From: Oscillospiraceae bacterium
Lineage (GTDB): Bacteria > Bacillota > Clostridia > Oscillospirales > CAG-272
Length of the DNA stretch: 64,000 nucleotides
Direction: 5' to 3'
Assembly: GCA_015064245.1 (NCBI GenBank)
Contig: SVSQ01000001.1
Location: forward strand, 11,433 to 75,432
A program made the position numbers and the translations under genes. The notes under the pieces were generated by a model. It had not been told where the DNA came from, did no database searches, and was given only the letters and a program-made list of their open reading frames with translations. Shown one piece after another: positions 12,238 through 27,232 of the stretch (position 1 is its first letter; each line of letters starts with the position of its first letter).

Positions 12238-12966
12238 TTATTTCAGAACAGTTTTCAGCGCCTCGGTGCACTTGCGGACGTTCACAATACCGACCTCAGC
12301 GTTTCCGAGAACAGAATCTGTCATAGCCCCGCAGACCTCAAACAGTTCGCGGTACTTTTCGTATTCCTCGGAGCCCGTCTGCCCGTGTTTTCTGAAGCTT
12401 ATCTTGTACTCCCGTCCCTCGTAGTCGATAATAGTCAGCGGGATAGGATCAACGAGACGGTTCGGAATATCAAGCAGCTCGTCGACGGCGTGAATGTACG
12501 TATTGCGGTTCAGCTTGACGCCCAGCAGAAGTATCGTTGCGTCCTCGTCGTAAAGCCTCGACCATACTCCGCCCACGGGGCAGGGAGAGGTCGCCTTTTC
12601 TTCGCCCTTGACGAATTCAGCCGCCCGCTTTCCGAACGCCGCTACCGAATGCGTCGGGTGCAACGATCGCACCCCGTCTTCGCGAAACGCCGCCACAGTC
12701 GGCAGAGCGCCGATGCAAGGAACGGTTTTTCTGACGTCATATACGGGCTGCGCCGCGCCGACGTTCGCCCATGTGTGAGTCGGAACGACGAAGAGTCCGT
12801 CGGAAAGATAGGACTTGAACGCGTCTATCAGACCGTCGCATCCGCCCTCAACTCCGCCGAGAGCGCGCATAGACGTATGGACCACCACCGTATCCGAGGG
12901 CGTAATTCCGTTATTTTTCAAAAATGTATGTATATCCTTGCAAGTTATCATTTCACAACCTCTCAT
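12238..12966 (-). CDS. AAC(3)-family (YokD-like) aminoglycoside N3-acetyltransferase homologue
   Basis: VVVHTSMRALGGVEGG, LFVVPTHT, HPTHSVAAFG and NTYIHAVDE blocks fit the Antibiotic_NAT family. The ATG at 12966 overlaps the upstream stop (ATGA). An alternative start is at 12951. Confidence 0.75.
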   Translation of the reverse strand: MRGCEMITCKDIHTFLKNNGITPSDTVVVHTSMRALGGVEGGCDGLIDAFKSYLSDGLFVVPTHTWANVGAAQPVYDVRKTVPCIGALPTVAAFREDGVRSLHPTHSVAAFGKRAAEFVKGEEKATSPCPVGGVWSRLYDEDATILLLGVKLNRNTYIHAVDELLDIPNRLVDPIPLTIIDYEGREYKISFRKHGQTGSEEYEKYRELFEVCGAMTDSVLGNAEVGIVNVRKCTEALKTVLK

Positions 12967-14990
12967 TCATCAACTTCTTTTTGTATAAACAGATATCCCA
13001 TCCCATCCGTATATGAGACTCCTACCCGATATCCTTTGCAGACCGCAACGTAATAGAATACGTCCCCCTCGGTAGTACCGTGGGCTTTTTCAACGTAGCC
13101 TATACGCTTCAGCATATTGGCGTAATCGCGTACCGCTTCCCTTTCAGCGTAAAGAGCTACGGTGACTATAACTTCATTCTGAGTATATTTGATCTCACAA
13201 TCAGGTCTCGGAACCGCAGAAGTGAACTCATTCTCGGGCCAGTTCTCGTCGCTCGGTATAGGACTGCCGTCGAAATTCAGATGCGACCAGCTTCCGTCCG
13301 GATAGACCGTAAAAATCCTTCTGTTCTGATTTACATAGACCTCGGTCTTATCGGGCAAAACGTATACGACCGTTCCGTTATCCGCGGTATGGCTGATAGT
13401 TCCCTCCGGAAATTCCAGACCGTAACCGGGGTACTTACTGCCGCCGTGCTCCTCTCCCTCGTTGGGCGCGGTGTCTTCTTTTTCGGGGATCTTGACCTCA
13501 ATGATCGAACCCGCATCGCCGGGTAAGCCGCTTCTTCCGTTGGAGCTTGAGCCTACGCACCTGCAGTTTTTCTTGGTGGTCCTGTGCTCTCCGCCCTCAC
13601 CGCCTTGTCCGCGGTCTCCGCCTTCTCCGCCGATGGAACCGTCACCGCCTTGTCCGCCCTTGCCGCCCGCGCCGCCGTTTCCACCCGCGCCGCCGCAAGT
13701 ACATTTTTCGCCGCCGATCTGACAGCCGTTACCAATCACGACGTCGTCGCAGGAACCGCCCGAACCTCCGTTTCCGCCTGTACCACCCGTACCGCCCTTG
13801 CCGCCTATACCGTGTGAGGACGCGCTGAGAGTGAATACTCCTCCCGTCTCCTCGCTGACGTTCACTGTATATTCAAGCTGAGAGACGTCGCTGATACCGC
13901 CGTTTCCGCCGTTTCCGCCTTCGCCTCCTTCACCGCCCTTACCGCCGTTAGAGCCGTACGTCCAGCCTACTCCGAGAAGCCAGCTTCCTTTATTGGCGTC
14001 TCCGCCCCGTCCGCCGTTTCCGCCAGTACCGCCTATACCGCCTTCGCCGCCGTTGCCGCCAGTACCGGACGACATAGCCAGCTCGCCTTGATTTACGTTC
14101 AATACGCAGGAAACGTTAAGGGGCTCTCCGCCGTTTCCGCCTGTTCCTCCGTTACCGCCCTTTTTGCCGACAGTACCCGTACCTGCGCTTTTGACGGGCT
14201 TCATAATGGTGACCCAAATATCGCCCGTTCCGTTGTAACCCGTCTCACCCTCTGCTCCTGCGCCGCCTTTACCGCCTTTACCGCCGTTGCCTCCGACTAT
14301 GCGGAGAGCTCCGCTTCCGTTCTTATCTATCTGAGAAGCGATCGCGGCGCACGCGCCTGCGCTGCCGTTTCCGCCCGTAATTCCGCTGTTTCCCGCGGCG
14401 TCGACTCCGTCTTCGCCGTTACCGCCGAAGAGCTGCATCGCAGACGAGCATTCAAAGGTAACCGTCGAGCCCGGAGCGTTCAGAGCCGGAGCTCCCGACG
14501 CGCCGAAGACCGTATTCTCTCCGCCCTCGCTCTTTATGCAGAGCGTTCTGCCGACGGAGCAATAGACGGTTCCGTTCTTTGAGCTTCCGTGCAGGCTGAA
14601 GCTTTCAAACACGAGGGTAAGAGGAAATGAATCGTGATGCTCCACCACGATATTCATATCCGAATACAGAACTCCCTCAGTACCGCGGAAGACCACCTCG
14701 CTGACGTCACCCGCAACGGTGACGGTCTTACCGATATGATGCTCCGAGCTGCCCGAGAGGTCTATCACCACTCTTTGACCTGACTTGTTTTTGTAATCCA
14801 GAAGCTCCTCCACCGTGTAAAGATATACGGTATCGTCCTTTTCGGGCTCGGTCACGTCACCGCCGTCCTCAGATCCACCGATCTGATCCACCACGTCGTC
14901 TATGATACCGCCCATATCTTCACATGAACAACAAAACGTTATAACAAGCAGGCATATTATCATCGCCTTTAGCGATGTTATCAGTCTCAT
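12963..14990 (-). CDS. secreted (possibly lipid-anchored) glycine-rich GGNGG-repeat protein, 675 aa
   Basis: The track ORF is trimmed to the ATG at 14990 (RBS ggatggagg). The signal-like N-terminus is MRLITSLKAMIICLLVITFCCSC. The central ~290 aa is dominated by GGNGGxGGxGG strings. The N- and C-terminal domains are distinct and non-repetitive. Confidence 0.7.
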   Translation of the reverse strand: MRLITSLKAMIICLLVITFCCSCEDMGGIIDDVVDQIGGSEDGGDVTEPEKDDTVYLYTVEELLDYKNKSGQRVVIDLSGSSEHHIGKTVTVAGDVSEVVFRGTEGVLYSDMNIVVEHHDSFPLTLVFESFSLHGSSKNGTVYCSVGRTLCIKSEGGENTVFGASGAPALNAPGSTVTFECSSAMQLFGGNGEDGVDAAGNSGITGGNGSAGACAAIASQIDKNGSGALRIVGGNGGKGGKGGAGAEGETGYNGTGDIWVTIMKPVKSAGTGTVGKKGGNGGTGGNGGEPLNVSCVLNVNQGELAMSSGTGGNGGEGGIGGTGGNGGRGGDANKGSWLLGVGWTYGSNGGKGGEGGEGGNGGNGGISDVSQLEYTVNVSEETGGVFTLSASSHGIGGKGGTGGTGGNGGSGGSCDDVVIGNGCQIGGEKCTCGGAGGNGGAGGKGGQGGDGSIGGEGGDRGQGGEGGEHRTTKKNCRCVGSSSNGRSGLPGDAGSIIEVKIPEKEDTAPNEGEEHGGSKYPGYGLEFPEGTISHTADNGTVVYVLPDKTEVYVNQNRRIFTVYPDGSWSHLNFDGSPIPSDENWPENEFTSAVPRPDCEIKYTQNEVIVTVALYAEREAVRDYANMLKRIGYVEKAHGTTEGDVFYYVAVCKGYRVGVSYTDGMGYLFIQKEVDE

Positions 14991-15096
14991 AAAAACCTCC
15001 ATCCCGCTGTCCTTCGGACAGCTGCACAAATAGTTGACGAATTTACTGTATTTAAAGATAATCTCGATCTAACAAATTTCTGTATATACATATTAT

Positions 15097-15214: not shown

Positions 15215-15988
15215 TTAAACCAACGCTCTGCCTTCCCACTGATCGTCGGGGTTTATTCCCATGATGGACGCGATGGTCGGCGCAATCTCAAGCAGGGAGA
15301 CCTCGCCCTCTATCTGCCCCGCCGTTACGTTATTTCCGCAAATGAACATGGGAACAGTCATATCCTCGGGCAAGGTTGTGCCGTGAGTTCTGTCGTGACC
15401 GCCGTGGTCCGCCATTATGATGACGGAATACTCCTCTCCGCAGCTCTCGATGACGCGCTTTACGTTATCGATCGCCATGGATACGCGGCGCAGGTACTCC
15501 TCGCTCATCCAACCGTTATCGTGACCGCCCTTCTCGTCCGTCTCCACCATATACAGGAAAACGAAATCCGGCTTATTCTCCGAAATGCACTCAAGCGCCT
15601 CGTCCGTCAGCGCCGTATCGCTGCTCTCCTTCATATACGCGTTTATGTAGGTCGCGAACTTGAGAGTACCGGGAAGAGCAATATCACGAAGAGGCTCCCA
15701 GCCGTAGAACATAGCGGAAACGCCGCCCGCGCTCTTGATCTTTTCAAAAATGCCGTCTATGGGACGCACCTGCGGGATATATGTGTTCGTAAGTATGCCG
15801 TGACGCTGAGGCGTTACCGAATGAGCCATTGAGAAATGGCAGGGAAAGGTAACGGAAGGGTTCATGGACTGCGCCGAATACGTATAAGCGCAGATCTCCT
15901 CCAGCTTGGACAGATACGGATTCCCGCAGGCCTTGAGCCCGTCGGAGCGCATACCGTCGATAGATATCAGAATCACCTTGTTTTTCAT
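15215..15988 (-). CDS. alkaline-phosphatase-superfamily nucleotide pyrophosphatase/phosphodiesterase-like protein
   Basis: The ORF is trimmed to MKNKVILISIDGMRSD (ATG at 15988, RBS aaaggag). TFPCHFSMAHSVTPQRHGI and IMADHGGHD are typical metal-site blocks of type I phosphodiesterase/ENPP-like enzymes. Confidence 0.7.
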   Translation of the reverse strand: MKNKVILISIDGMRSDGLKACGNPYLSKLEEICAYTYSAQSMNPSVTFPCHFSMAHSVTPQRHGILTNTYIPQVRPIDGIFEKIKSAGGVSAMFYGWEPLRDIALPGTLKFATYINAYMKESSDTALTDEALECISENKPDFVFLYMVETDEKGGHDNGWMSEEYLRRVSMAIDNVKRVIESCGEEYSVIIMADHGGHDRTHGTTLPEDMTVPMFICGNNVTAGQIEGEVSLLEIAPTIASIMGINPDDQWEGRALV

Positions 15989-16005
15989 TGTTTTGCACGC
16001 TCCTT

Positions 16006-16641
16006 TCACTTGACCGATGCAAGCACCTGATCCTTGATCTGGATCATTCCGAGAGGCGTCGGATGACCGTTCATCTTGTCGATTTTTTCAAGAACTATAG
16101 CCTTTCCGCCGACTCTTTCGCAAGAATTGCGTATTGCGTCCCTGACCTCGTTCTTTATATCGCAGTTGCATATACCGTAGATCTTCGCGTCGGGAAGCGT
16201 CTCGCGGAGCTTAGTGAAGAAATAGCCGACCGCAGGCAGGACGTTATAGAGATCTTTTCTCTCCCAACCCTCGCTCATCTCGTTTCCGAGGGGAGCGTTT
16301 GACCAGCTGTCGTTCGTTCCGCCGAAAACGAACACCGTATCGATCTTGTTCTCCGCGAAAAAGCCTTCCTGCGTCAGCTTTTCGAGTCTGTAAATAAATG
16401 AACTGCTTCCCGAAGTGTCGGAATTGTTGTAGCCCGTGTAACCGATGGTGGAGCCGCTCCAGCTGTCGTTGCGGACGAGGTTCGCTCCGCTCTCCTTCAC
16501 CATCAGTCCCCACCAGGACTGATCCGCGCTTTCAATATCGGGACCGCGTTCTCTTCTGCCCGAATAGTAGGCGGCGTAGCCCTGAGGGATACAGCCCGCA
16601 AAGGTGGAATAGCTGTCTCCGAATATCATTATATTTTTCAT
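16006..16641 (-). CDS. SGNH/GDSL-family hydrolase
   Basis: It has MIFGDSYS (block I), SGSTIG, and VFVFGGTNDSW blocks. Length is 211 aa. Confidence 0.7.
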   Translation of the reverse strand: MKNIMIFGDSYSTFAGCIPQGYAAYYSGRRERGPDIESADQSWWGLMVKESGANLVRNDSWSGSTIGYTGYNNSDTSGSSSFIYRLEKLTQEGFFAENKIDTVFVFGGTNDSWSNAPLGNEMSEGWERKDLYNVLPAVGYFFTKLRETLPDAKIYGICNCDIKNEVRDAIRNSCERVGGKAIVLEKIDKMNGHPTPLGMIQIKDQVLASVK

Positions 16642-16967: not shown

Positions 16968-17072
16968 TTCAGGAATTATTTCGGAATTATTTCAGAAACT
17001 ATTTCAGGAATTATTTCAGAAATTTATTTCAGAAATTTATTTCAGAAATTTATTTCAGAAATTTATTTCATA
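16968..17072. repeat. imperfect tandem repeat, ~9 units of 11-13 bp (minus strand CTGAAATAAATTT)
   Basis: The sequence ttcaggaattatttcggaattatttcagaaactatttcaggaattatttcagaaatttatttcag... has its last four units identical (cagaaatttattt). It starts at the oppF-like stop codon. Confidence 0.9.
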
Positions 17073-18700
17073 ACCTCAAGCTGTTCAAGTCTGGAGGATT
17101 TCTTCTCCATCTTGGGAAGCTCAAAGAGGTACTCGCCCTTTTCATCCAGCTTCTTCTCTGCGAAGTGACAAGCCACGAAGTGACCGGGCTCCACCTCTAC
17201 CAGCGGAGGCTGAGCGCACTTGCACTTTTCGCAAGCCATAAAGCATCTGGTGTGGAACTTACAGCCGTCCGGGGGACGAATGGGGCTGGGAATGTTACCC
17301 TCAAGAATGATACGTTCCTTGTTCAGATCGTCGGGGTCTGTGGTGGGGATAGAGGAAAGGAGCGCGACGGTATAGGGATGGCGCGGATCCTTGAATATCT
17401 CCTCGGAGGGAGCAAGCTCGACTATGTTTCCAAGATACATTACGGCGATTCTGTCCGAAATGTAACGAACGACGGAAAGGTCGTGAGAGATGAACATATA
17501 AGTGAACTTCTCTTTTTGCTGAAGCTCCTGAAGCAGATTGATGATCTGGGACTGGATGGAAACGTCAAGGGCGGATACGCACTCGTCGCAAACCACGAAC
17601 TTAGGCTTGACCGCCAAAGCTCTCGCGATGCAGATACGCTGACGCTGTCCGCCGGAGAACTGGTGGGGATAACGGTGAAGCATATAATCCTGAAGACCGC
17701 AGTCGCGCATGGTCTGAAGGATGTACTCCTGCATCTTGGAAGAACCGTGCTTGAAGAAGTTGTGAGTGACAAGACCTTCCTCGATTATCTGACCGATGGT
17801 CATTCTGGGATCGAGCGAAGAATAGGGGTCCTGGAAAATGATCTGCAGGTCTTTGCGGAGATGACGCATCTCGCTGTACTTGAGGCGCGCAAGGTCGACT
17901 CCGTCGTCCAGCATCTCCTCGTACTTCGCAAATTCCGCGTTATCCGCGTGCTTAGCCTTCAGCGCGTTCAGCTCTTCCTTTATAGCGGGCTTTTTAGCCT
18001 CAAGAGCCTCAATGCTGTCAGCGATACGTTCTATTTTCGCCTGAGAAGCAGTTATCTTCTTCTCGATGGATGCAGTATCCTTGCCTTCCTCTGCGAGATC
18101 GTCCTTTTGAGTGTGAAGAAGCTCGATCTCTGCGGCAAGATCCGCGATCTTATGGTTATACTTGGCGATAGCGACGTTGATGTGATGCTCCTTGAGAAGC
18201 ACCTTAGCGCTCTGCTCCAGTTCGTCCGTAACTATAAATCCGCCCATGATCTTTACGATGTTCATAAGGGCAGAACGGGCGTTCGCAACTGCAAGATTCT
18301 TCTCCTGAAGCTTATAGAAGGTGGCGCTGTCTCCGAGAGCGTCGCATTCTGCAGTCAGCTTATCTGCCAGCGCCTGAGCATTCTTGTACTTTGTAAGATA
18401 TTTGCTTGCGTTTTTCAGCGTATGCTCGATATAGTACGGAGCGACCTCAGAAAGAGTTCTGCCGTAGTACATAGCCGAGCCTGCAGTCTGTTCGTAAAGC
18501 TGGAGAAGAACTCTTCCGAGAGTGGACTTACCGCATCCGGACTCGCCCACGATACCGACAGTCTCTCCCTCGTAAATGTCGAGAGTTATCTCCTCGTTTG
18601 CTCTGACGTAAAGGCTCTCCTTCTGGAAAAGAGAACTTTTTGCCACAGGGAAATACTTTTTAAGGTCTGTAATCGACAGTAATTTTCTTGTGTTCGGCAC
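17063..18700 (-). CDS. OppF/DppF-type ABC ATPase with ~190-aa coiled-coil insertion
   Basis: I chose the GTG start at 18700 (RBS aaggagga), because the longer track ORF would overlap the upstream gene by 236 nt. It has Walker A GESGCGKST, Q-loop IIFQDPY, signature FSGGQRQR, Walker B VVCDECVSALD, and the C-terminal CKFHTRC oligopeptide-transporter tail. Confidence 0.8.
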   Translation of the reverse strand: MPNTRKLLSITDLKKYFPVAKSSLFQKESLYVRANEEITLDIYEGETVGIVGESGCGKSTLGRVLLQLYEQTAGSAMYYGRTLSEVAPYYIEHTLKNASKYLTKYKNAQALADKLTAECDALGDSATFYKLQEKNLAVANARSALMNIVKIMGGFIVTDELEQSAKVLLKEHHINVAIAKYNHKIADLAAEIELLHTQKDDLAEEGKDTASIEKKITASQAKIERIADSIEALEAKKPAIKEELNALKAKHADNAEFAKYEEMLDDGVDLARLKYSEMRHLRKDLQIIFQDPYSSLDPRMTIGQIIEEGLVTHNFFKHGSSKMQEYILQTMRDCGLQDYMLHRYPHQFSGGQRQRICIARALAVKPKFVVCDECVSALDVSIQSQIINLLQELQQKEKFTYMFISHDLSVVRYISDRIAVMYLGNIVELAPSEEIFKDPRHPYTVALLSSIPTTDPDDLNKERIILEGNIPSPIRPPDGCKFHTRCFMACEKCKCAQPPLVEVEPGHFVACHFAEKKLDEKGEYLFELPKMEKKSSRLEQLEVMK

Positions 18701-19691
18701 TTCTTCTCTCCTCCTTCTTAGGATAAAAACATCTGATAAACTGACCGTCTGTGTTTTCACGCAGCTCCGGCTCTTGATCGATACATTTCTGTGTGCAATA
18801 CTTACATCTGGGCGCGAACTTACATCCCTTGGGAAGCGCCAGCGGATGAGGCACGTTACCGGGAATAGGCTCCAGCTTTTCTCCCATATTGTCAAGTCTT
18901 GGGATGGACATCATAAGTCCTTCCGTGTAGGGATGGCTGAACTCGCAATCCGTAAATATCATTCTTGCGGACGTCTTTTCAACTACCTGACCGCAGTACA
19001 TAACTACCACGTCGTCAGCCATCTCGTTGATAACGCCCAGGTCGTGAGTGATGAATATGATAGACGTTCCGTTATCTCGCTGCAGATCGTTCATAAGTCG
19101 AAGGATCTGAGCCTGAATGGTAACGTCAAGGGCGGTAGTAGGCTCGTCTGCGATAAGTATCTTAGGACGGCAGGCAAGCGCCATAGCGATCATAACTCTC
19201 TGGCGCATACCGCCCGAAAGCTGATGAGGATACTGACGGAGCACCGCCTCAGGGTTAGGTATCTGAACCGCCTCGAGCATTTTGAGAGCTTCCTCAGCCG
19301 CCTGCTTTTTATTCATACCCTGGTGGATCATAAAGGGCTCGGAGAGCTGCTTTTTGACCGTGAATACAGGGTTGAGCGAGGTCATGGGCTCCTGAAAGAT
19401 AACGGAAATCTTGTTGCCTCTTATGCTCTGCATATCGGCTATGGGCATTTTGGTAAGCTCTTTGACCTCTCCGTCAATGTCGAACAGTATCTCGCCGGAC
19501 TCGATATATCCGTTTCCGTCCAGAAGACGGAGGATACTCATAGCCGAAACGCTCTTTCCCGATCCGGACTCACCCACGATACCGATGGTCTTTCCGGGCT
19601 CAAGGGTATAAGAAACGTCGTTTACCGCTTTTACTATACCTTTTTTGGTAGTGAAATATGTGTGTAGATTTTTAACTTCAAGTAGTGGCAT
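18660..19691 (-). CDS. OppD/DppD-type ABC ATPase
   Basis: The start is [13 protein letters not shown] (ATG at 19691). It has [28 protein letters not shown] and the C-terminal CKFAPRC. Confidence 0.85.
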
Positions 19692-19811
19692 ATTTATGAC
19701 CATTCCTTTCTTACGCCAAACAGCGTTTTGCGGCGGTATGCCCTACGGGGCGTCTCTGAACGGGTTCAGAAGCCGCAAAAGGCGTGGTTTGAAAATTCAT
19801 TTTCAAACTAA

Positions 19812-21848
19812 TTACCTCCCTTGACTGGACTTGGGGTCCATAACGTCACGAAGCGCGTCTCCGATGATGTTGATGCAAATGGTGGTTATCATCAGGAATA
19901 TAGCGGGGAACAGCCACTGCCACCAGTAATTCTGGATAACGACGGAGTTACTGGAGCCGTTCAGCATATTACCCCAGGTAGGACGGGGGAGCGCTACGCC
20001 GAATCCCAAGTAAGAAAGCGAGGATTCCGTAAGCATACAGCTTGCAAAGTCCAGAGTCATAGAAACTATGATTATAGAAATAACGTTAGGAAGGATGTGC
20101 TTGAAAGCGATCTTCCATTCAACGACGCCCATAGCCTTTGCCGCGGTAACGAATTCCTTCTCACGCTCGGCGAGGACCTGACCTCTGACCAGACGTGCAA
20201 GTCCGGGCCATGACAGAACGCCGAGGATCACCATTATCAGAATTATTCTTGTGATCTCGGAAAGTCCCATAGTAGCGACTATCAGAGAAAGTATCAACGC
20301 AAATGGCATGAAGGGGATCGCCGAAACGACCTCAGCTATACGCATAAGCAGCATATCCAGCCATCCGCCGAAGTATCCGGACAGACATCCGACGATGATA
20401 CCGATGATGGAAGAAATGATAACAGCGATAGCGCCGACAGTCATTGTAAGACGCCCGCCGTTTACTATACGCTCCCAGATGTCTCTTCCGAAGTTATCCG
20501 TACCCATAAGGTAGCCCTTAAGTCCCCAGCTGTCGATAAGATCGCCTTCGGCATCTACCGCATACGTCTGGAAAGGTCCAACGAATATCTCTGAAACACC
20601 TGAAATACCGCTCGGAACCTTGGACTGCTTCAAAGTATTGCTACCCCAGGAGTAAACAGTTCCCTTATCCGTAAGAGCGACGTAATGCTTCTGACCGCCC
20701 ATAATATTTACGATCTTTTCGCCCTCAGCAAACTGAGGAACGATATTCTCGCCGTTCGCGCATACACCGGAAACAAGGACCGTACCGTCGTCAAGAACGA
20801 AGGCAGCAGAGCTTCCCGCAGCGCCTATATCAACGACCTTTCGGCCGTTCTCTTCGATATAATCACGGAGCTTTACACGGGTGCTTACGCCGTTCACGTC
20901 AACGTAAGTGTAATCGAAGCTCGACGTTCCGTCGGTGGAATAGGTTCCGTCCTTGAGAAGAAGAACGGCGTACTCCGTGGTGAACACCAGCTTTTCAACG
21001 TTATTATACTTTTTGACGGCTGCAAGGTTTGTAGCGCCTATACTGTGGTTACCCCAGATATAGAACTTACCGTCGTTCATAACGATACCGCTGACCTGCT
21101 TACCGCAGACTACCTGCTTGATCTGAGCGGGATCGAGATTTCCATTAAGCACGTCAGAAGGCGCGAAGGTATAAAGGAAACCGAGAGTTGCGTTGCCTTC
21201 GGGAATAGGACCGTACTGACCGTTCGCATTCTGTCCCCAGCCGTAGACCTTTCCGTCGTCACCGACAGCAATTATATGATCCGTACCTGCCGCAACGTGA
21301 ATGATATTAGCGTTCTTAACCTCTTCCGGGATCTTACTTACGTCGGAGAGCAATGTCTTTGTATGTCCCCAAACGTAGACGTTTCCGTCCTCGGAAAGAC
21401 CTACCGAGAAGGTAGAGTTTGAGGAGATAGTTTTGATCTGTCCCTTCATTTCCTTGGGAACTGACATCATATTAAGACCGGGAGCAACGTTCTGCTGAGA
21501 CGTTTCGATATACGAAAGGTCGATAGGATAGATGAACGGTCCCACCAGCATCAGAAGGAACATTGCAAAGAATACCACGAGAGCGCCTACAGCCAGCTTC
21601 TTTTGGAAGAACGCCTTGACTCTCTGCTTTCCGGGGCTTTCGATCTTTTCGACAGCGAAGATATCGTCATCCTTGTTTTCTTCGTCGTCACCGTTATTCA
21701 TTTCATTATAAAGGGCGTTAGCGCCGCCGAAAAAGGTTCTCTTGAACCAACGGCTCAGTGTAGCAAACGCGCCGGTTGTTTTCTTATTTTCAGAAGCTTT
21801 GGAGGTTACCGCGTCTTCTTTTTTGTTTTTATTCTTATTCTCTTCCAC
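19812..21848 (-). CDS. OppC/DppC-type ABC permease with RCC1-repeat domain inserted in the first extracytoplasmic loop
   Basis: The GTG start is at 21848 (RBS aaaggaggg). TM1 is LAVGALVVFFAMFLLMLVGPFIY. About 300 aa of repeats follow (GNVYVWGH, GKVYGWGQNANGQYG, GKFYIWGN, GTVYSWGSN). The canonical core comes next: GTDNFGRDIW..VGAIAVIISS..EFVTAAKAMG. Confidence 0.8.
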   Translation of the reverse strand: MEENKNKNKKEDAVTSKASENKKTTGAFATLSRWFKRTFFGGANALYNEMNNGDDEENKDDDIFAVEKIESPGKQRVKAFFQKKLAVGALVVFFAMFLLMLVGPFIYPIDLSYIETSQQNVAPGLNMMSVPKEMKGQIKTISSNSTFSVGLSEDGNVYVWGHTKTLLSDVSKIPEEVKNANIIHVAAGTDHIIAVGDDGKVYGWGQNANGQYGPIPEGNATLGFLYTFAPSDVLNGNLDPAQIKQVVCGKQVSGIVMNDGKFYIWGNHSIGATNLAAVKKYNNVEKLVFTTEYAVLLLKDGTYSTDGTSSFDYTYVDVNGVSTRVKLRDYIEENGRKVVDIGAAGSSAAFVLDDGTVLVSGVCANGENIVPQFAEGEKIVNIMGGQKHYVALTDKGTVYSWGSNTLKQSKVPSGISGVSEIFVGPFQTYAVDAEGDLIDSWGLKGYLMGTDNFGRDIWERIVNGGRLTMTVGAIAVIISSIIGIIVGCLSGYFGGWLDMLLMRIAEVVSAIPFMPFALILSLIVATMGLSEITRIILIMVILGVLSWPGLARLVRGQVLAEREKEFVTAAKAMGVVEWKIAFKHILPNVISIIIVSMTLDFASCMLTESSLSYLGFGVALPRPTWGNMLNGSSNSVVIQNYWWQWLFPAIFLMITTICINIIGDALRDVMDPKSSQGR

Positions 21849-21862
21849 GATAGATCCCTCCT

Positions 21863-22882
21863 TTACTTATTTACACGGACACGGGGGTCAACCAGACCGT
21901 ACGCAAGGTCGATGAGAAGGTTACCCGCAAGTCCAAGAACGACGTAGAACATCTGAAGAGCCATAGCGACCTCATAGTCCTTCGTATTAAGAGCGGTAAT
22001 GTAAACTTTACCGAGACCGTTCAGACCGAACATGTTCTCGATGATAAGAGAGCCGGAGAAGATTCCGAGGAACCAGCCGATAACAAGAGTAACGATCGGA
22101 ATGAGAGCGTTTCTCCATGCGTGGCTGTATATAACGACCTTTTCCTTGAGTCCCTTTGCTCTTGCCGTACGGATGCAGTCCATAGACAGAGCCTCGATCA
22201 TGGAAGAACGAACGTAACGCGTCATTCCGCCAAGAGACGAGAAGGTCATAACTATCAGAGGCAGAGCCATATAGTAGAGCTTGTCAAGAAAAGCTCTGAA
22301 TCCTGTGAAGTTTGAGTTTGGCGTGCTCATACCTGCGACGGGGAAAAGCTTTAATTGAACGGCGAAAAGCCAAATAAACAAAATAGCGATAATAAAGGAA
22401 GGAATAGAGTAGCCGACGATAGTACCTACCTGTACTGCCGTATCGCGCTTGCTTCCCTTTTTGACCGCGCAGAAAATACCCAGCGGTATAGTGATACCGA
22501 GAGCGAGAATAGTTGCGAAAATATTTATAAATACAGTATTCTTGAGAGGCTCTTTCAGAAGACCGAGCACGTCGTCGGTGCTGTAGTTATAGCTGTATCC
22601 GAAGTTACCCTGAAGAAGACCGTCAAATTGACCGTCGATAGGCGCAAGTCCCATCCAGTACAAGTATCTCATGGGAAGCGGCTCATCGAGACGCATCTTC
22701 TGTCTGAGCGCCTGATAAACTTCCTCGTATCGACCTTCCTTCTGGAGCTGGACCTCCTGACCCTGCAGACGAAGCGCCGCATAGTCGATATCTATAAAGT
22801 TATAGATCGTGTACAAAAAGAAAGAAAGAATAAATGCGACTATAACTATATATACAAGACGTTTTAGTATATATTTTAACAT
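21863..22882 (-). CDS. OppB/DppB-type ABC permease
   Basis: It starts MLKYILKRLVYIV, has the EAA-loop region IRTARAKGLKEKVV, and ends DLAYGLVDPRVR. RBS is aaaggaga. Confidence 0.85.
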   Translation of the reverse strand: MLKYILKRLVYIVIVAFILSFFLYTIYNFIDIDYAALRLQGQEVQLQKEGRYEEVYQALRQKMRLDEPLPMRYLYWMGLAPIDGQFDGLLQGNFGYSYNYSTDDVLGLLKEPLKNTVFINIFATILALGITIPLGIFCAVKKGSKRDTAVQVGTIVGYSIPSFIIAILFIWLFAVQLKLFPVAGMSTPNSNFTGFRAFLDKLYYMALPLIVMTFSSLGGMTRYVRSSMIEALSMDCIRTARAKGLKEKVVIYSHAWRNALIPIVTLVIGWFLGIFSGSLIIENMFGLNGLGKVYITALNTKDYEVAMALQMFYVVLGLAGNLLIDLAYGLVDPRVRVNK

Positions 22883-22986: not shown

Positions 22987-25116
22987 TTACTGAGCTGTCT
23001 TATCGTAGCAGTAAACGATTGCGTTTGCAACGCCCCAGTCGGGGTTAACCTCGTAGCCGCCGATCTTAGCGTTGTAAAGATCGTGGTAAAGGTCAGAGTA
23101 AAGTGTGATCTCGGGAAGAACGTAGTTCCAACGAACGATGTAATCCATCCAGTAGTCCTTGAACTCTTCCTTGTTTGCTGCCTTGTAAACCATATCCCAA
23201 GAAAGCTCGTCGAGCTCCTTGTCAGCGAAGTAACCCATGTTACCCTGAGACATGTACATGTTCCAGATAGCGTCGATCATCTCGTTCTCTTCTGCTGTGT
23301 ACTTGGAAGCGTCTGCCTCTGTGTAGGTAGCGCCCTCGCAAGGAGCAACACCTGCGTAAACGAGGTTGGAGTTGGAGTACTTGGTCATCCAGTAACCTGC
23401 GTAGTCGTAAATAGGAGTGAAGCCTGTAGCAAGGTTGAACATGCTGTACTTAGGCTTGGAGTAGTCACCTGTTCTGTAGATAACCTCAAGAAGAATGGAG
23501 AAGTCCATAACATCCTGGCTGATTACCATACCTGCCTGAGCTGTTGTTGTAGCTTCCTTGAGCATAACAACGAGGAGCTCGGAAACAGGGTTGTCGGGAG
23601 TGGAAGCCCAGTTGAGTGCGAGAGGCATATAGTAGTCCTCGCCAACCTTAACTGTCTTGTACTCTGTAGCGCCGCACTGATAAGTAGCGTTATCGTTAAC
23701 AGCAGCCTCAGCAGCTGTGAGCTTCTTGTAACGGATACCTGTTGTGTAAGCGGAACCGTCCTTGTTGTAAACCCATCCGTCCTCTTCGAGGAGCTCGATA
23801 GCCTTATCAACGGAGAACTCATATGCATTGAGCTTAGGATCAAGCTCATCCTTTGTTTCCTGGTACATCCAGCTAGCAAGACCGTAGGGACCCTTTACAA
23901 GGCTACCATAACCACCGGTGTATGTGGAAGCGAATGTATTCTTATCGAGAAGGTGGCTGAGAGCGTGACGAACCTTAACGAACTGTGTAGGACCGTAGTC
24001 GTTCATAAGCTGAAGCTTACCGTAACCTGCTCTGAGGTAGTTGGTAACAGCGTACTTCTCGGGGTTAGCGTTAACGAGTGCGAGAGCTGCGTTGATATCG
24101 TCGCCGCCTGCGAGGCCTGCGATAACGTCAACACCGCCGCTCTGGAACTGGTCGAGCTGAGTCTCGGAAATAACCTTAACGTAGGAAAGATCCTTGATGT
24201 GAGGCTTCTGACCCTCGAAGTTTCCGAGGTACTGATCGTTGATTGTAAGAGTAGCAACGTGTGTGCTCTTATCCCAGTTTACGAACTTGTAAGGACCGGA
24301 GCAGGGACGCTCTGTAGTAGCGTAACGAGCCTTCTCGATCTGAGCAGCCTTAACGTACTTATCAGCGCCTGTCTCGTCCTTGGTCTTCTCATACCACTTC
24401 TCTGTGAGGTATGCGCCCTGACCGTCGTCCTTAACGTCTACGTCATCGCCGATCCAAAGCTTAACGGACATAGGAGAGAATGTAGCGTAGGTTGCCTCGT
24501 AGTAGTAGGGGAAGTAGTCAGCCTTCATTGTGTAGGAGAAGGTGTAATCGTCGTAAAGTCTGATACCGGAGAAAGGAGTGGGAGCGGTAGCTGCGTTGTA
24601 CTCAGCGTGGCCAACGTAGGAAGTACCGCCAACTGCCTTAACGCCTGCGTCAAGACATACGGGAGATGCCATTACGAGAGAATAAACAACGTAATCCTTA
24701 GCGGTGATTGCAGAACCGTCGGAATACTTAAGGTTATCATTGATGGTAACCTTGAATGTCTTGGAACCGTCGTCGTTGTCGATGATTTCGTAGCTCTTAA
24801 CAACAACCTTGGTGTCCCAAACGTATTCGCCTGCTTTTGTCTGCTGTACGCAAGCGTAGCCGTTTGTGAGGTCGCGGACGTCCTTGTCAGCCGCGTTGTT
24901 ACCCCATGTGGAAGAAGCGAAGTCGCTTCCGGAGAGTTCTGTGGTGCTACCGATGATCGCGGAGCCGCCTACCTTAACGGTATCGGTCGTCTCGTCGCCA
25001 CCGGGTGTCTTATCAGGATTCTCATCCTTGTTACAGGAGATCATGCTGACTGTAGCGCCTGCAATCATAGCGAAACAGAGAAGCATGCTGATAAGCATCT
25101 TGAGAGATCTTTTCAT
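22987..25116 (-). CDS. family-5 (OppA-like) ABC substrate-binding lipoprotein, 709 aa
   Basis: The signal plus lipobox-like sequence is MKRSLKMLISMLLCFAMIAGATVSMISC. The body is typical of peptide/nickel-type binding proteins. It heads the opp-like operon. Confidence 0.8.
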   Translation of the reverse strand: MKRSLKMLISMLLCFAMIAGATVSMISCNKDENPDKTPGGDETTDTVKVGGSAIIGSTTELSGSDFASSTWGNNAADKDVRDLTNGYACVQQTKAGEYVWDTKVVVKSYEIIDNDDGSKTFKVTINDNLKYSDGSAITAKDYVVYSLVMASPVCLDAGVKAVGGTSYVGHAEYNAATAPTPFSGIRLYDDYTFSYTMKADYFPYYYEATYATFSPMSVKLWIGDDVDVKDDGQGAYLTEKWYEKTKDETGADKYVKAAQIEKARYATTERPCSGPYKFVNWDKSTHVATLTINDQYLGNFEGQKPHIKDLSYVKVISETQLDQFQSGGVDVIAGLAGGDDINAALALVNANPEKYAVTNYLRAGYGKLQLMNDYGPTQFVKVRHALSHLLDKNTFASTYTGGYGSLVKGPYGLASWMYQETKDELDPKLNAYEFSVDKAIELLEEDGWVYNKDGSAYTTGIRYKKLTAAEAAVNDNATYQCGATEYKTVKVGEDYYMPLALNWASTPDNPVSELLVVMLKEATTTAQAGMVISQDVMDFSILLEVIYRTGDYSKPKYSMFNLATGFTPIYDYAGYWMTKYSNSNLVYAGVAPCEGATYTEADASKYTAEENEMIDAIWNMYMSQGNMGYFADKELDELSWDMVYKAANKEEFKDYWMDYIVRWNYVLPEITLYSDLYHDLYNAKIGGYEVNPDWGVANAIVYCYDKTAQ

Positions 25117-25471: not shown

Positions 25472-27232
25472 ATGTATAACGAATGGTCTCTTGAAAAGCT
25501 TTACAAAAGCGCAGATGATCCGCAGATCGAAGCGGATATGAAAAAGATAGAGGAATGCGTAGCCGAATACAAAGCGGCAGTAGCGGCTCTTGACGCCGAA
25601 AACGCGACCGCTACTTTAAGAAAAGCCATGGACATTTCCGAAACGGCAAACTTACTGCTCAGAAAGCTCGCCGGCTTCTTCAGCCTCCGCCGTTCCACAA
25701 ACGCAAGCGACACCGCAGGCGCAACGTATATGACCAAGCTGCACGCGCTCATGGCGTCCAACGCCAAGGAAAGAGTCATCTTTGACAAGTTCGTAGGCTC
25801 TCTGCCCGACCTTGACGCAGTAATAGCAAAAGATGAGGTGCTTTCTGAATATAAATTCCATTTTGAAGAGATAAAGCAGTCCGTCTCTCACAATATGAGC
25901 GACGAGGCTGAGGAGGTCTTCGCCAAGATGAGCATCAGCGGCGGAAGCGCGTGGGGAGATTTGTTCTCTTACCTTACCGCGGGAGTCGAGGTCGATTACA
26001 AGGGCGAAAAGACCACACTCTCCGCTATCCGCGGACTTGCCGAAAGCGACGACGCAACGGTGCGCCGCGAAGCATACGAGGCTGAGATCGCTTGTTATTC
26101 CAAGATCCGCGACTCCATCGCCTTCTCTCTCAACAGCATCAAGGCTCAGGTAAACACAGAAGCAGAGCTTCGCCGTTACGACTCCCCTCTCGATATGACT
26201 CTCGCAGACTCCAGAATGGACCGCGCTACCCTCGAGGCTATGCTGGAAGCGATGAGAGAATACCTGCCCAAGTTCCACGAGTATCTCCGCCACAAAGCGA
26301 AACTCCTCGGTCACGAAAACGGTCTCCCTTGGTACGACCTCTTCGCTCCCATGGGCAGATCCTCCACGGCTGAGTTCACCGTCGAGGACGCGCACAAGTA
26401 TCTGGTGGAGCATTTCAATAACTTCGCGCCTGACCTTGCCGAGATGGTCGATAGAGCGTTCAAGGAGGAATGGATAGATTTCTTCCCGAGATCGGGAAAG
26501 GTAGGCGGCGCGTTCTGCTCAAATCTTCCTTTTATTAAAGAGAGCCGTATCCTGACGAACTTCTCCGGCAGCTTCGGATCGGTAGTTACGCTTGCCCACG
26601 AGCTCGGACACGCTTACCACGGTCAGCAGATCCAGGATCACCGTCCTCTCAATACCGGTTACACCATGCCCGTAGCGGAGACCGCTTCCACCTTCAACGA
26701 GCTGATAATCGTAAACGACGCTATCGCTCAGTCCGAGGGCGAAGAGAAGATCGCTCTTATCGAAAGCCAGCTTCAGGACTGCACGCAGATAATCGCGGAC
26801 ATCTATTCCAGATTCCTCTTCGAGGACGAGGTCATCCGCCGCAGAAAGGACAAGTTCATGTTCGCTCCCGAGCTTGAGGAGATAATGCTGAACGCTCAGA
26901 AGGAAGCCTACGGCGACGGACTTGACCATAACTGTCTCCACCCGTACATGTGGTGCTGCAAGAGTCACTACTACCGCGCAGGTCTCAGCTACTACAACTT
27001 CCCTTACGCCTTCGGCGGACTCTTCGCCCGCGGACTCTACGCAAAATATCTTGAGGAGGGCGAGGCGTTCCTGCCAAAATACCGCAAGCTCCTCAACGCT
27101 ACCACCGTTGATACGGTCGAGGGCGTAGCCGGCATCGCTGGCATCGACCTTACCAAGCCTGAATTCTGGCGCGCAAGCCTGCAGACCATCGCAGACAGCA
27201 TCGACGAGTTTATAAAAGAGACGTCTAAATAA
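25472..27232 (+). CDS. pepF: M3-family oligoendopeptidase F
   Basis: This is a 586-aa ORF with the zinc site TLAHELGHAYHG and a downstream E (ETASTFNE). Length and layout are typical of PepF/M3B. Confidence 0.85.
   Translation: MYNEWSLEKLYKSADDPQIEADMKKIEECVAEYKAAVAALDAENATATLRKAMDISETANLLLRKLAGFFSLRRSTNASDTAGATYMTKLHALMASNAKERVIFDKFVGSLPDLDAVIAKDEVLSEYKFHFEEIKQSVSHNMSDEAEEVFAKMSISGGSAWGDLFSYLTAGVEVDYKGEKTTLSAIRGLAESDDATVRREAYEAEIACYSKIRDSIAFSLNSIKAQVNTEAELRRYDSPLDMTLADSRMDRATLEAMLEAMREYLPKFHEYLRHKAKLLGHENGLPWYDLFAPMGRSSTAEFTVEDAHKYLVEHFNNFAPDLAEMVDRAFKEEWIDFFPRSGKVGGAFCSNLPFIKESRILTNFSGSFGSVVTLAHELGHAYHGQQIQDHRPLNTGYTMPVAETASTFNELIIVNDAIAQSEGEEKIALIESQLQDCTQIIADIYSRFLFEDEVIRRRKDKFMFAPELEEIMLNAQKEAYGDGLDHNCLHPYMWCCKSHYYRAGLSYYNFPYAFGGLFARGLYAKYLEEGEAFLPKYRKLLNATTVDTVEGVAGIAGIDLTKPEFWRASLQTIADSIDEFIKETSK

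Follow-up and report, generated by a model that had tools for sequence, protein, structure and literature searches.

A predicted seven-bladed RCC1-like β-propeller in the first extracytoplasmic loop of an OppC-type permease from gut Clostridia

An Opp/Dpp-type operon with an enlarged OppC subunit

The window analysed here is a stretch of 64,000 nucleotides from an Oscillospiraceae bacterium (GenBank assembly GCA_015064245.1, contig SVSQ01000001.1, positions 11,433 to 75,432 of the forward strand). It contains a five-gene operon encoding a family-5 substrate-binding lipoprotein, OppB- and OppC-type permeases, and OppD- and OppF-type ATPases, in which the OppC-type subunit (678 amino acids; aa) carries a predicted β-propeller between its first transmembrane helix (TM1) and a canonical permease core (Table 1). 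We regard it as almost certain that the operon encodes a five-component importer of the Opp/Dpp family, in which about 320 residues within the first extracytoplasmic loop of the OppC subunit form a rigid seven-bladed propeller; this sits on the outward side of the translocator's C half, beside the site at which the binding protein docks.

Table 1. Features of the operon and its surroundings, in window coordinates
Feature	Coordinates	Strand	Evidence
OppC-type permease gene with propeller insert, 678 aa	19812..21848	minus	Pfam, NCBIfam, protein clusters
N-terminal tail, predicted cytoplasmic, aa 1–84, K/E/N-rich	21597..21848	minus	hydropathy, AlphaFold2
TM1, aa 85–107, within OppC_N domain aa 71–123	21528..21596	minus	Pfam, hydropathy, AlphaFold2 helix 84–106
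Predicted extracytoplasmic linker from TM1 to propeller, aa 108–130	21459..21527	minus	alignment of homologues
Predicted seven-bladed RCC1-like / BLIP-II-like β-propeller, aa 131–444	20517..21458	minus	Pfam, AlphaFold2, Foldseek, repeat units
Canonical OppC core, aa 445–678: GTD motif, TM2–TM6, EAA-type coupling loop aa 568–587	19815..20516	minus	
Family-5 substrate-binding lipoprotein, 709 aa, lipobox ...SMISC, first operon gene	22987..25116	minus	
OppB/DppB-type permease, 339 aa, canonical TM1–TM2 region (Pfam BPD_transp_1_N)	21863..22882	minus	
OppD-type ATPase, 347 aa, oligo_HPY C-terminal domain	18660..19703	minus	
OppF-type ATPase, 545 aa, true start GTG 18700 behind ribosome-binding site AAGGAGGAG	17063..18700	minus	
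OppF helical insert, ~180 aa (aa 83–262), between Walker A region and Q-loop	17915..18454	minus	
M3 oligoendopeptidase F, divergent from operon	25472..27232	plus	

The original prediction, made from the letters of the window, described an OppC-like protein with a normal core and with RCC1-type repeats between TM1 and that core, and Pfam matches confirm both parts of this description. OppC_N (PF12911) is matched over its entire profile (positions 1–53 of 53; 32.1 bits, cutoff 23.9), and BPD_transp_1 (PF00528) is matched at aa 483–673 (E 2.3e-34). From aa 131 to about 440 lie matches to RCC1_2 (three stretches; E 1.2e-24; 85.8 bits, cutoff 22) and RCC1 (E 1.4e-07; 32.4 bits, cutoff 21.7); WD40_RLD is also matched (E 7.4e-35), its 121.4 bits falling under the whole-domain cutoff of 150. 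These E-values rule out chance as the source of the combined OppC_N, RCC1 and core architecture. The repeat region as first delimited (20523–21437) corresponds to aa 138–442, and all of the motifs then quoted are present (GNVYVWGHTK at aa 155, HVAAGTDHIIAVGDDGKVYGWGQNANGQYG at 184, GKFYIWGNHS at 260, HYVALTDKGTVYSWGSNTLKQ at 388 and GTDNFGRDIWERIV at 449). Seven units of the form DG-x-V-Y-x-WG start at aa 155, 199, 260, 301, 355, 396 and 435. By hydropathy, TM1 is the sole hydrophobic segment before the core; none lies inside the insert.

Alignment with Escherichia coli OppC (8z21_B, 302 aa) places residues 80–301 of that protein against aa 444–674 (phmmer, E 8.5e-52), the core sharing 42% identity with it at a TM-score of 0.64 (Foldseek, normalised to the target). 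The aligned part of E. coli OppC starts about 20 residues past its first helix, which agrees with the short loop originally ascribed to canonical OppC and identifies the additional ~320 residues as a true insertion, lying between P123, with which OppC_N ends, and the K-G-Y-L-M-G-T-D stretch that leads into TM2. The linker that follows TM1 is partly conserved in an alignment of 53 homologues (A1), with P123 invariant and P108, Y113, Q118, N120 and V130 each retained in at least 90% of sequences. The coupling-loop motif of the core has the form TAA-x3-G-x10-ILP (T568-A-A-x3-G574 ... I585-L-P587). All NCBIfam matches fall under their cutoffs, the best being Opp4C (293.7 bits against 350), with the E. 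coli OppC model at 193 against 433; by all the structural features compared, the 678-aa protein belongs among the Opp/Dpp permeases, yet it is no equivalog of any named transporter.

An artefact of assembly or annotation, in which an RCC1 gene and oppC had been joined into a chimera, is effectively ruled out, since independent assemblies repeatedly show the same architecture. It is uninterrupted in all 120 of the best-matching protein clusters and in 80 independent assemblies, as well as on contigs from ENA, NCBI, JGI and Logan; the OppC_N helix upstream of the insert and the core downstream of it lie in a single reading frame, and nothing was found in favour of a chimera.

Predicted fold and membrane topology

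The model of the 678-aa protein obtained with AlphaFold2 (AF2) from the 53-sequence alignment has a mean predicted local distance difference test score (pLDDT) of 79.8 and a predicted template modelling score (pTM) of 0.71. Disorder is predicted at aa 1–26 and 53–69 (pLDDT <50), and the helices of the core fit TM2–TM6. Over aa 130–450 the pLDDT is 90–95, and the strands of this region form seven groups (approximately aa 138–161, 182–205, 243–267, 284–326, 338–361, 379–402 and 420–442), corresponding to seven blades of about 45 residues each, which are short in the manner of the blades of BLIP-II. A Foldseek comparison of the model with the Protein Data Bank (PDB) matched the insert to BLIP-II (1jtd_B, E 8e-16), UVR8, the RCC1-like domains of HERC2, HERC1 and RPGR, and RCC1; the matches to BLIP-II, UVR8, HERC2, RPGR and RCC1 have a probability of 1.00 and E-values of 8e-16 to 1e-11, with TM-scores for the RCC1-like matches of 0.4–0.6 (normalised to the target). 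We infer closure of the propeller ring in the model from these matches to seven-bladed structures. The core matched OppC and DppC of both E. coli and Mycobacterium tuberculosis. The proposal that the repeats fold as a seven-bladed propeller is thus borne out by structure prediction.

The placement of the propeller on the outer face, rather than in the cytoplasm, had likewise been proposed, and three lines of evidence agree with it. Five lysine or arginine residues are present in the 15 residues that precede TM1, against none in the 15 that follow it. The EAA-type coupling loop falls between predicted helices 4 and 5 of the model and, as this loop must face the ATPase, the TM1–TM2 loop must lie outside. 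Solved Opp/Dpp structures share this topology, and their TM1–TM2 regions are described as periplasmic (PMC12136057). On these grounds the propeller is predicted to be outside the cell. Clostridia have a single membrane, and this would put the propeller in the space that separates membrane and wall. At its C-terminal end the propeller passes directly into the conserved GTD motif of the outward end of TM2; this fusion positions it on the outer surface of the translocator's C half.

Distribution and conservation of the family

A search of 5.8 billion proteins with the full-length sequence was evaluated over its best 120 clusters, every one of which (120/120) combines RCC1 and BPD_transp_1 domains, at 51–79% identity to the query. 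Query coverage is 95–100% in nearly all of these clusters; it is 64% for P0054, a longer form of 820 aa. Cluster representative P0001 has the same sequence as the window protein, whose 90%-identity cluster also holds NCBI MBE6609065.1 ('ABC transporter permease subunit'), from a Ruminococcaceae/Oscillospiraceae metagenome-assembled genome. That designation (ABC, ATP-binding cassette) is the sole database name found among the 120 clusters listed. A scan of one genome per species gave at least 581 confirmed relatives, and in the best 80, for which the architecture was checked, all span the insert; the survey of its spread thus finds the same architecture in at least 80 species-representative genomes. 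The hosts of these 80 are gut and rumen Oscillospiraceae, Lachnospiraceae (Acetatifactor, Eisenbergiella, Butyrivibrio), Christensenellales, Candidatus Scatosoma, Faecousia and others, the nearest relative among the matches listed being from Candidatus Scatosoma (69%). An exhaustive HMMER scan of 1.84 billion cluster representatives yielded approximately 35–40 separate 50%-identity clusters, of about 600–730 aa, which can be aligned with the query over its whole length at identities as low as 39%.

In all 53 aligned homologues the insert is 327–350 aa long. Mean pairwise identity among them is 46% for the propeller against 77% for the membrane core, and blade 4 is the most variable of the seven (33% identity, against 41–53% in the other blades). 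From the fixed insert length, the many 50%-identity clusters and the occurrence in species-representative genomes, the pattern of sequence conservation clearly indicates that the propeller domain is maintained by selection.

The original prediction also knew of no described example of this architecture. This stands in so far as no account of an ABC importer permease with an RCC1 propeller turned up in our literature search, whose coverage excludes subscription-only journals; any implication of rarity does not stand, as the protein belongs to a large, generically annotated family in public data. The architecture is abundant in sequence databases and, as far as the searched literature goes, uncharacterised.

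Longer relatives of 773–1142 aa (P0134, P0142, P0146, P0148 and P0149; locus L081, 1011–4439) keep OppC_N and the core and have many more RCC1 repeats in the loop, possibly as two propellers or as extra domains. Other OppC-type permeases (P0242, P0248, P0253, P0268 and P0269; 551–691 aa) carry unrelated inserts of 250–400 aa, with no Pfam match, in the same loop; in the locus of P0268 (L082, 5120–7195) such a permease gene adjoins that of an 888-aa family-5 binding protein. Given these unrelated inserts, OppC seems to have a hotspot for repeated insertion in its first outer loop.

Operon partners and genomic neighbourhood

The gene order binding protein, OppB, propeller-containing OppC, OppD, OppF is identical in every related locus with enough flanking sequence. 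All five genes were recovered in 67 of 80 related loci, and two further loci (L083 and L084) have the same order. Large binding proteins are the rule (median ~740 aa, with starts estimated from the first ATG), a lipobox being present in 62 of 68, and the nearest solved binding protein is the peptide-binding OppA 9p48_A (E 5e-21). In the window, both ATPases bear the oligo_HPY C-terminal domain.

The helical insert of OppF always accompanies the propeller-containing OppC and was found in at least 120 protein clusters (534–582 aa). AF2 models it as a helical bundle with pLDDT 90–97. In Pfam it obtains weak matches to SMC_N, AAA_13 and Cluap1 only, and no solved counterpart was found, since a Foldseek search with the OppF model matched plain OppF, DppF and other ATPase domains only. 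In E. coli DppBCDF the C subunit pairs specifically with F (PMC12136057) and, by analogy, the OppF insert would lie under the same half of the transporter as the propeller.

Clustering of 441 flanking open reading frames (ORFs) from the 80 loci gave no conserved neighbour outside the five operon genes, and no conserved regulator. The commonest neighbour is the M3 oligoendopeptidase, present at 6 loci; related M3 peptidase genes flank the operon in approximately 6–9 of the 80. The M3 oligoendopeptidase F of the window may be a functional partner of the transporter. Going by sequence comparison, the substrate of the transporter is probably oligopeptides, to which both the nearest solved binding protein and the peptidase gene beside the operon hint.

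In one lineage (L083, 152–2110; L084, 66–1978; L038, 134–2014) nagB (glucosamine-6-phosphate deaminase) and nagA (N-acetylglucosamine-6-phosphate deacetylase) lie immediately upstream of the operon, and in L083 a ROK-family gene precedes them. This arrangement hints that some members of the family may import substrates containing amino sugars rather than plain peptides.

Co-evolution of the subunits

Distance matrices of the subunits were compared over 67 of the loci L001–L080 plus the window. Those of the binding protein, OppB and OppC intercorrelate (r 0.66–0.87), as do those of OppD and OppF (r 0.75–0.89); correlation between these two modules is weaker (0.22–0.65), which suggests that the ATPase gene pair may have been exchanged between operons or be under a different evolutionary regime. 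In partial Mantel tests controlling for OppB and the OppC core, the propeller retains a correlation with the binding protein (r = 0.19, p = 0.002), whereas the cytoplasmic OppF insert, which evolves fast, does not (r = -0.09).

Relation to known transporters and propellers

Canonical OppC and DppC (E. coli OppC 8z21_B and DppC 8z1v_B, M. tuberculosis OppC 8j5q_C) have the same core fold and sequence as the window protein, together with the OppC_N helix and EAA-type loop, and canonical Opp/Dpp systems have the same operon partners (OppB, OppD, OppF and a family-5 binding protein). The window protein differs in having the ~320-residue propeller in place of a ~20-residue loop; its operon also differs, in that OppF has the ~180-aa helical insert and the binding protein is 150–200 aa longer than usual.

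The insert shares its seven-bladed RCC1-type fold and repeat signature with BLIP-II (1jtd_B, 3qhy_B), UVR8, the RCC1-like domains (RLDs) of HERC2, and RCC1, at identities of 16–23%; unlike these soluble proteins, it is embedded in a loop of a membrane protein. The likeness implies no Ran, β-lactamase or UV-B function. BLIP-II (β-lactamase inhibitory protein II) binds tightly to, and inhibits, class A β-lactamases, and the resemblance to it is one of fold only (23% identity).

Two systems resemble the window protein in where the extra domain sits. In E. coli MalF, a permease subunit of a type I ABC importer, the P2 loop (residues 91–276) is likewise a folded domain in an extracytoplasmic permease loop, beside the dock of the binding protein; this is an experimentally established extra domain, which holds MalE throughout the transport cycle (PMC6906923). 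The Kd of MalF P2 for MalE is 7–22 µM. It is immunoglobulin (Ig)-like rather than a propeller, lies between TM3 and TM4 of MalF rather than between TM1 and TM2 of OppC, belongs to another transporter family, and is not homologous; no Ig-like or MalF chain is among the 50 best Foldseek matches listed, all of which are RCC1-like propellers and Opp/Dpp C subunits. The extracellular domains ECD1/ECD2 of pneumococcal AmiC (residues 31–278) are closer in context, being a large extracellular insertion in the same TM1–TM2 loop of the same transporter family, in a Gram-positive organism with lipoprotein binding proteins (PMC11192437). AmiC is, however, an OppB-type rather than an OppC-type subunit and is not described as an RCC1 propeller, and its role is likewise predicted, from AlphaFold-Multimer (PMC11192437). 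The likeness to MalF P2 and the AmiC domains is one of position and, by analogy, of probable role, not of homology.

Possible roles of the propeller

As the most likely role, which we put forward tentatively and by analogy, the propeller would be a docking platform for the operon's own binding protein, capturing and orienting this large lipid-anchored protein on the OppC side much as the MalF P2 loop holds MalE and as the AmiC domains are predicted to clamp the pneumococcal oligopeptide-binding proteins. The proposal draws on the position of the TM1–TM2 loop in Ami and Dpp, the precedent of MalF P2, and the protein-binding habit of the solved relatives of the fold, BLIP-II binding β-lactamase, RCC1 binding Ran and UVR8 binding COP1. 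The constrained length of the insert, the fixed gene order of the operon and the consistently large binding proteins also speak for it, as does, weakly, the residual correlation between propeller and binding protein. In the AlphaFold-Multimer model of Ami, lobe 2 of the binding protein is in contact with the TM1–TM2 connection of AmiD, the OppC-type subunit, and AmiC is proposed to wedge and clamp the binding protein with its large TM1–TM2 extracellular domains (PMC11192437). In E. coli DppABCDF, a TM1–TM2 'scoop' of DppB inserts into DppA (PMC12136057); the corresponding region of OppB in the window, canonical-looking by Pfam, may still supply such an element. Several observations weigh against docking as the role. 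The invariant residues of the propeller mostly belong to the generic structural RCC1 consensus (WG, GQ-G, AAG-DH), and no obviously family-specific interface stands out among its conserved residues in the 53-sequence alignment. Alignment of the binding protein to 9p48_A located no discrete extra domain, the additional length being spread over several segments. The residual correlation of the propeller with the binding protein is small and non-specific, as the TM1 segment of OppC correlates with the binding protein to a similar extent (r = 0.21). Finally, RCC1-type propellers are common in giant, presumably surface-located proteins which match the query, so that other ligands are possible.

Such a ligand might be a wall or surface polymer, a macromolecular source of substrate (protein or glycan), or a secreted or wall-bound hydrolase (a peptidase or PBP-fold enzyme), which in the last case would couple extracellular degradation directly to uptake. 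We consider binding of this kind somewhat unlikely. It would fit the best structural match, BLIP-II, which is a secreted bacterial propeller that binds a PBP-fold enzyme; the most similar non-transporters, giant proteins of 2,000–7,000 aa with many RCC1 repeats, which their size and repeats suggest to be surface proteins; the variability of blade 4, as expected of a diversifying ligand surface; and the M3 peptidase genes beside a minority of loci, together with nagA and nagB directly upstream in one lineage. Against it, the flanks of the 80 loci vary and hold no conserved candidate partner gene, and the fixed insert length and rigid fusion to the entry of TM2 are more in keeping with a part in the transport cycle than with a flexible capture tether. 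The propeller might also have no specific binding role. It could be a cap or spacer, shielding the translocator or spanning the space under the thick wall, or an aid to folding or assembly kept by inertia, and the largely structural character of its conserved residues would suit this, as would the unrelated 250–400-aa inserts of other OppC lineages, which indicate that the loop tolerates insertions. We find this improbable, however, because a near-constant insert length across many 50%-identity clusters in three orders of Clostridia argues for a selected function, and because propellers are classic interaction scaffolds.

The strict co-conservation of the propeller with the OppF insert raises a further reading, in which the two would form a transmembrane regulatory axis on the C–F half: the propeller would sense an external cue or the occupancy of the binding protein, and the OppF insert would gate the ATPase or signal to a cytoplasmic partner, the transporter doubling as a receptor. 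Both inserts are placed on the same half by the analogy with E. coli DppBCDF, and the OppF insert is a confidently predicted bundle without counterpart in the solved Opp/Dpp ATPases. Yet partial Mantel tests leave no co-evolution between the propeller and the OppF insert (r = -0.13 and 0.01), the two ATPase genes seem to have had a history partly separate from that of the permease and binding-protein genes, and no regulator gene is conserved nearby; there is accordingly little likelihood that this is the role. Distinctly improbable, too, is a broader proposal in which the propeller-containing OppC and helical-insert OppF define a distinct and widespread transporter class of gut Clostridia, with a C–F coupling axis, acting as a receptor or as a surface hub joining degradation and uptake. 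The macromolecular partner recognised outside the cell by the propeller of such a class would be a specific set of binding proteins, a hydrolase bound to the wall, or a ligand from host or diet, whilst the helical domain in the cytoplasm would control ATP hydrolysis or pass a signal inward.

Significance of the architecture

Opp-type transporters are major routes for peptide nutrition, the recycling of wall peptides and peptide signalling in Gram-positive bacteria, and the present family is carried by gut Oscillospiraceae, Lachnospiraceae and Christensenellales, abundant bacteria most of which have not been cultured. A rigid 35-kDa outer propeller, the helical domain of the partner ATPase and the unusually large size of the binding lipoprotein are conserved together, and this joint conservation suggests a variation on the type I importer mechanism beyond all solved Opp/Dpp structures. 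Extra domains on importer permeases have precedents; what sets this one apart is its fold, the subunit that bears it, the ATPase insert conserved alongside, and how widely it occurs among uncultured bacteria that abound in the gut. Should docking of the binding protein prove to be its role, the MalF P2 solution would have been invented a second time, independently and with another fold, and the family would offer a tractable system for studying the recruitment of lipid-anchored binding proteins. If it binds something else, uptake would be physically linked to a surface partner. In either case, the family merits an annotation of its own in place of the generic permease-subunit name that it now carries.

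A further gene in the same part of the window, an ORF of 688 aa (12963–15029, minus strand), lies downstream of genes for a small phosphodiesterase (15215–16009) and a GDSL-like hydrolase (16006–16641). No Pfam family is matched by its product at E up to 0.001; the N-terminal region includes a lipoprotein-like hydrophobic stretch that ends in cysteines, and the long central region consists of glycine-rich GGNGG / GGxGG repeats.

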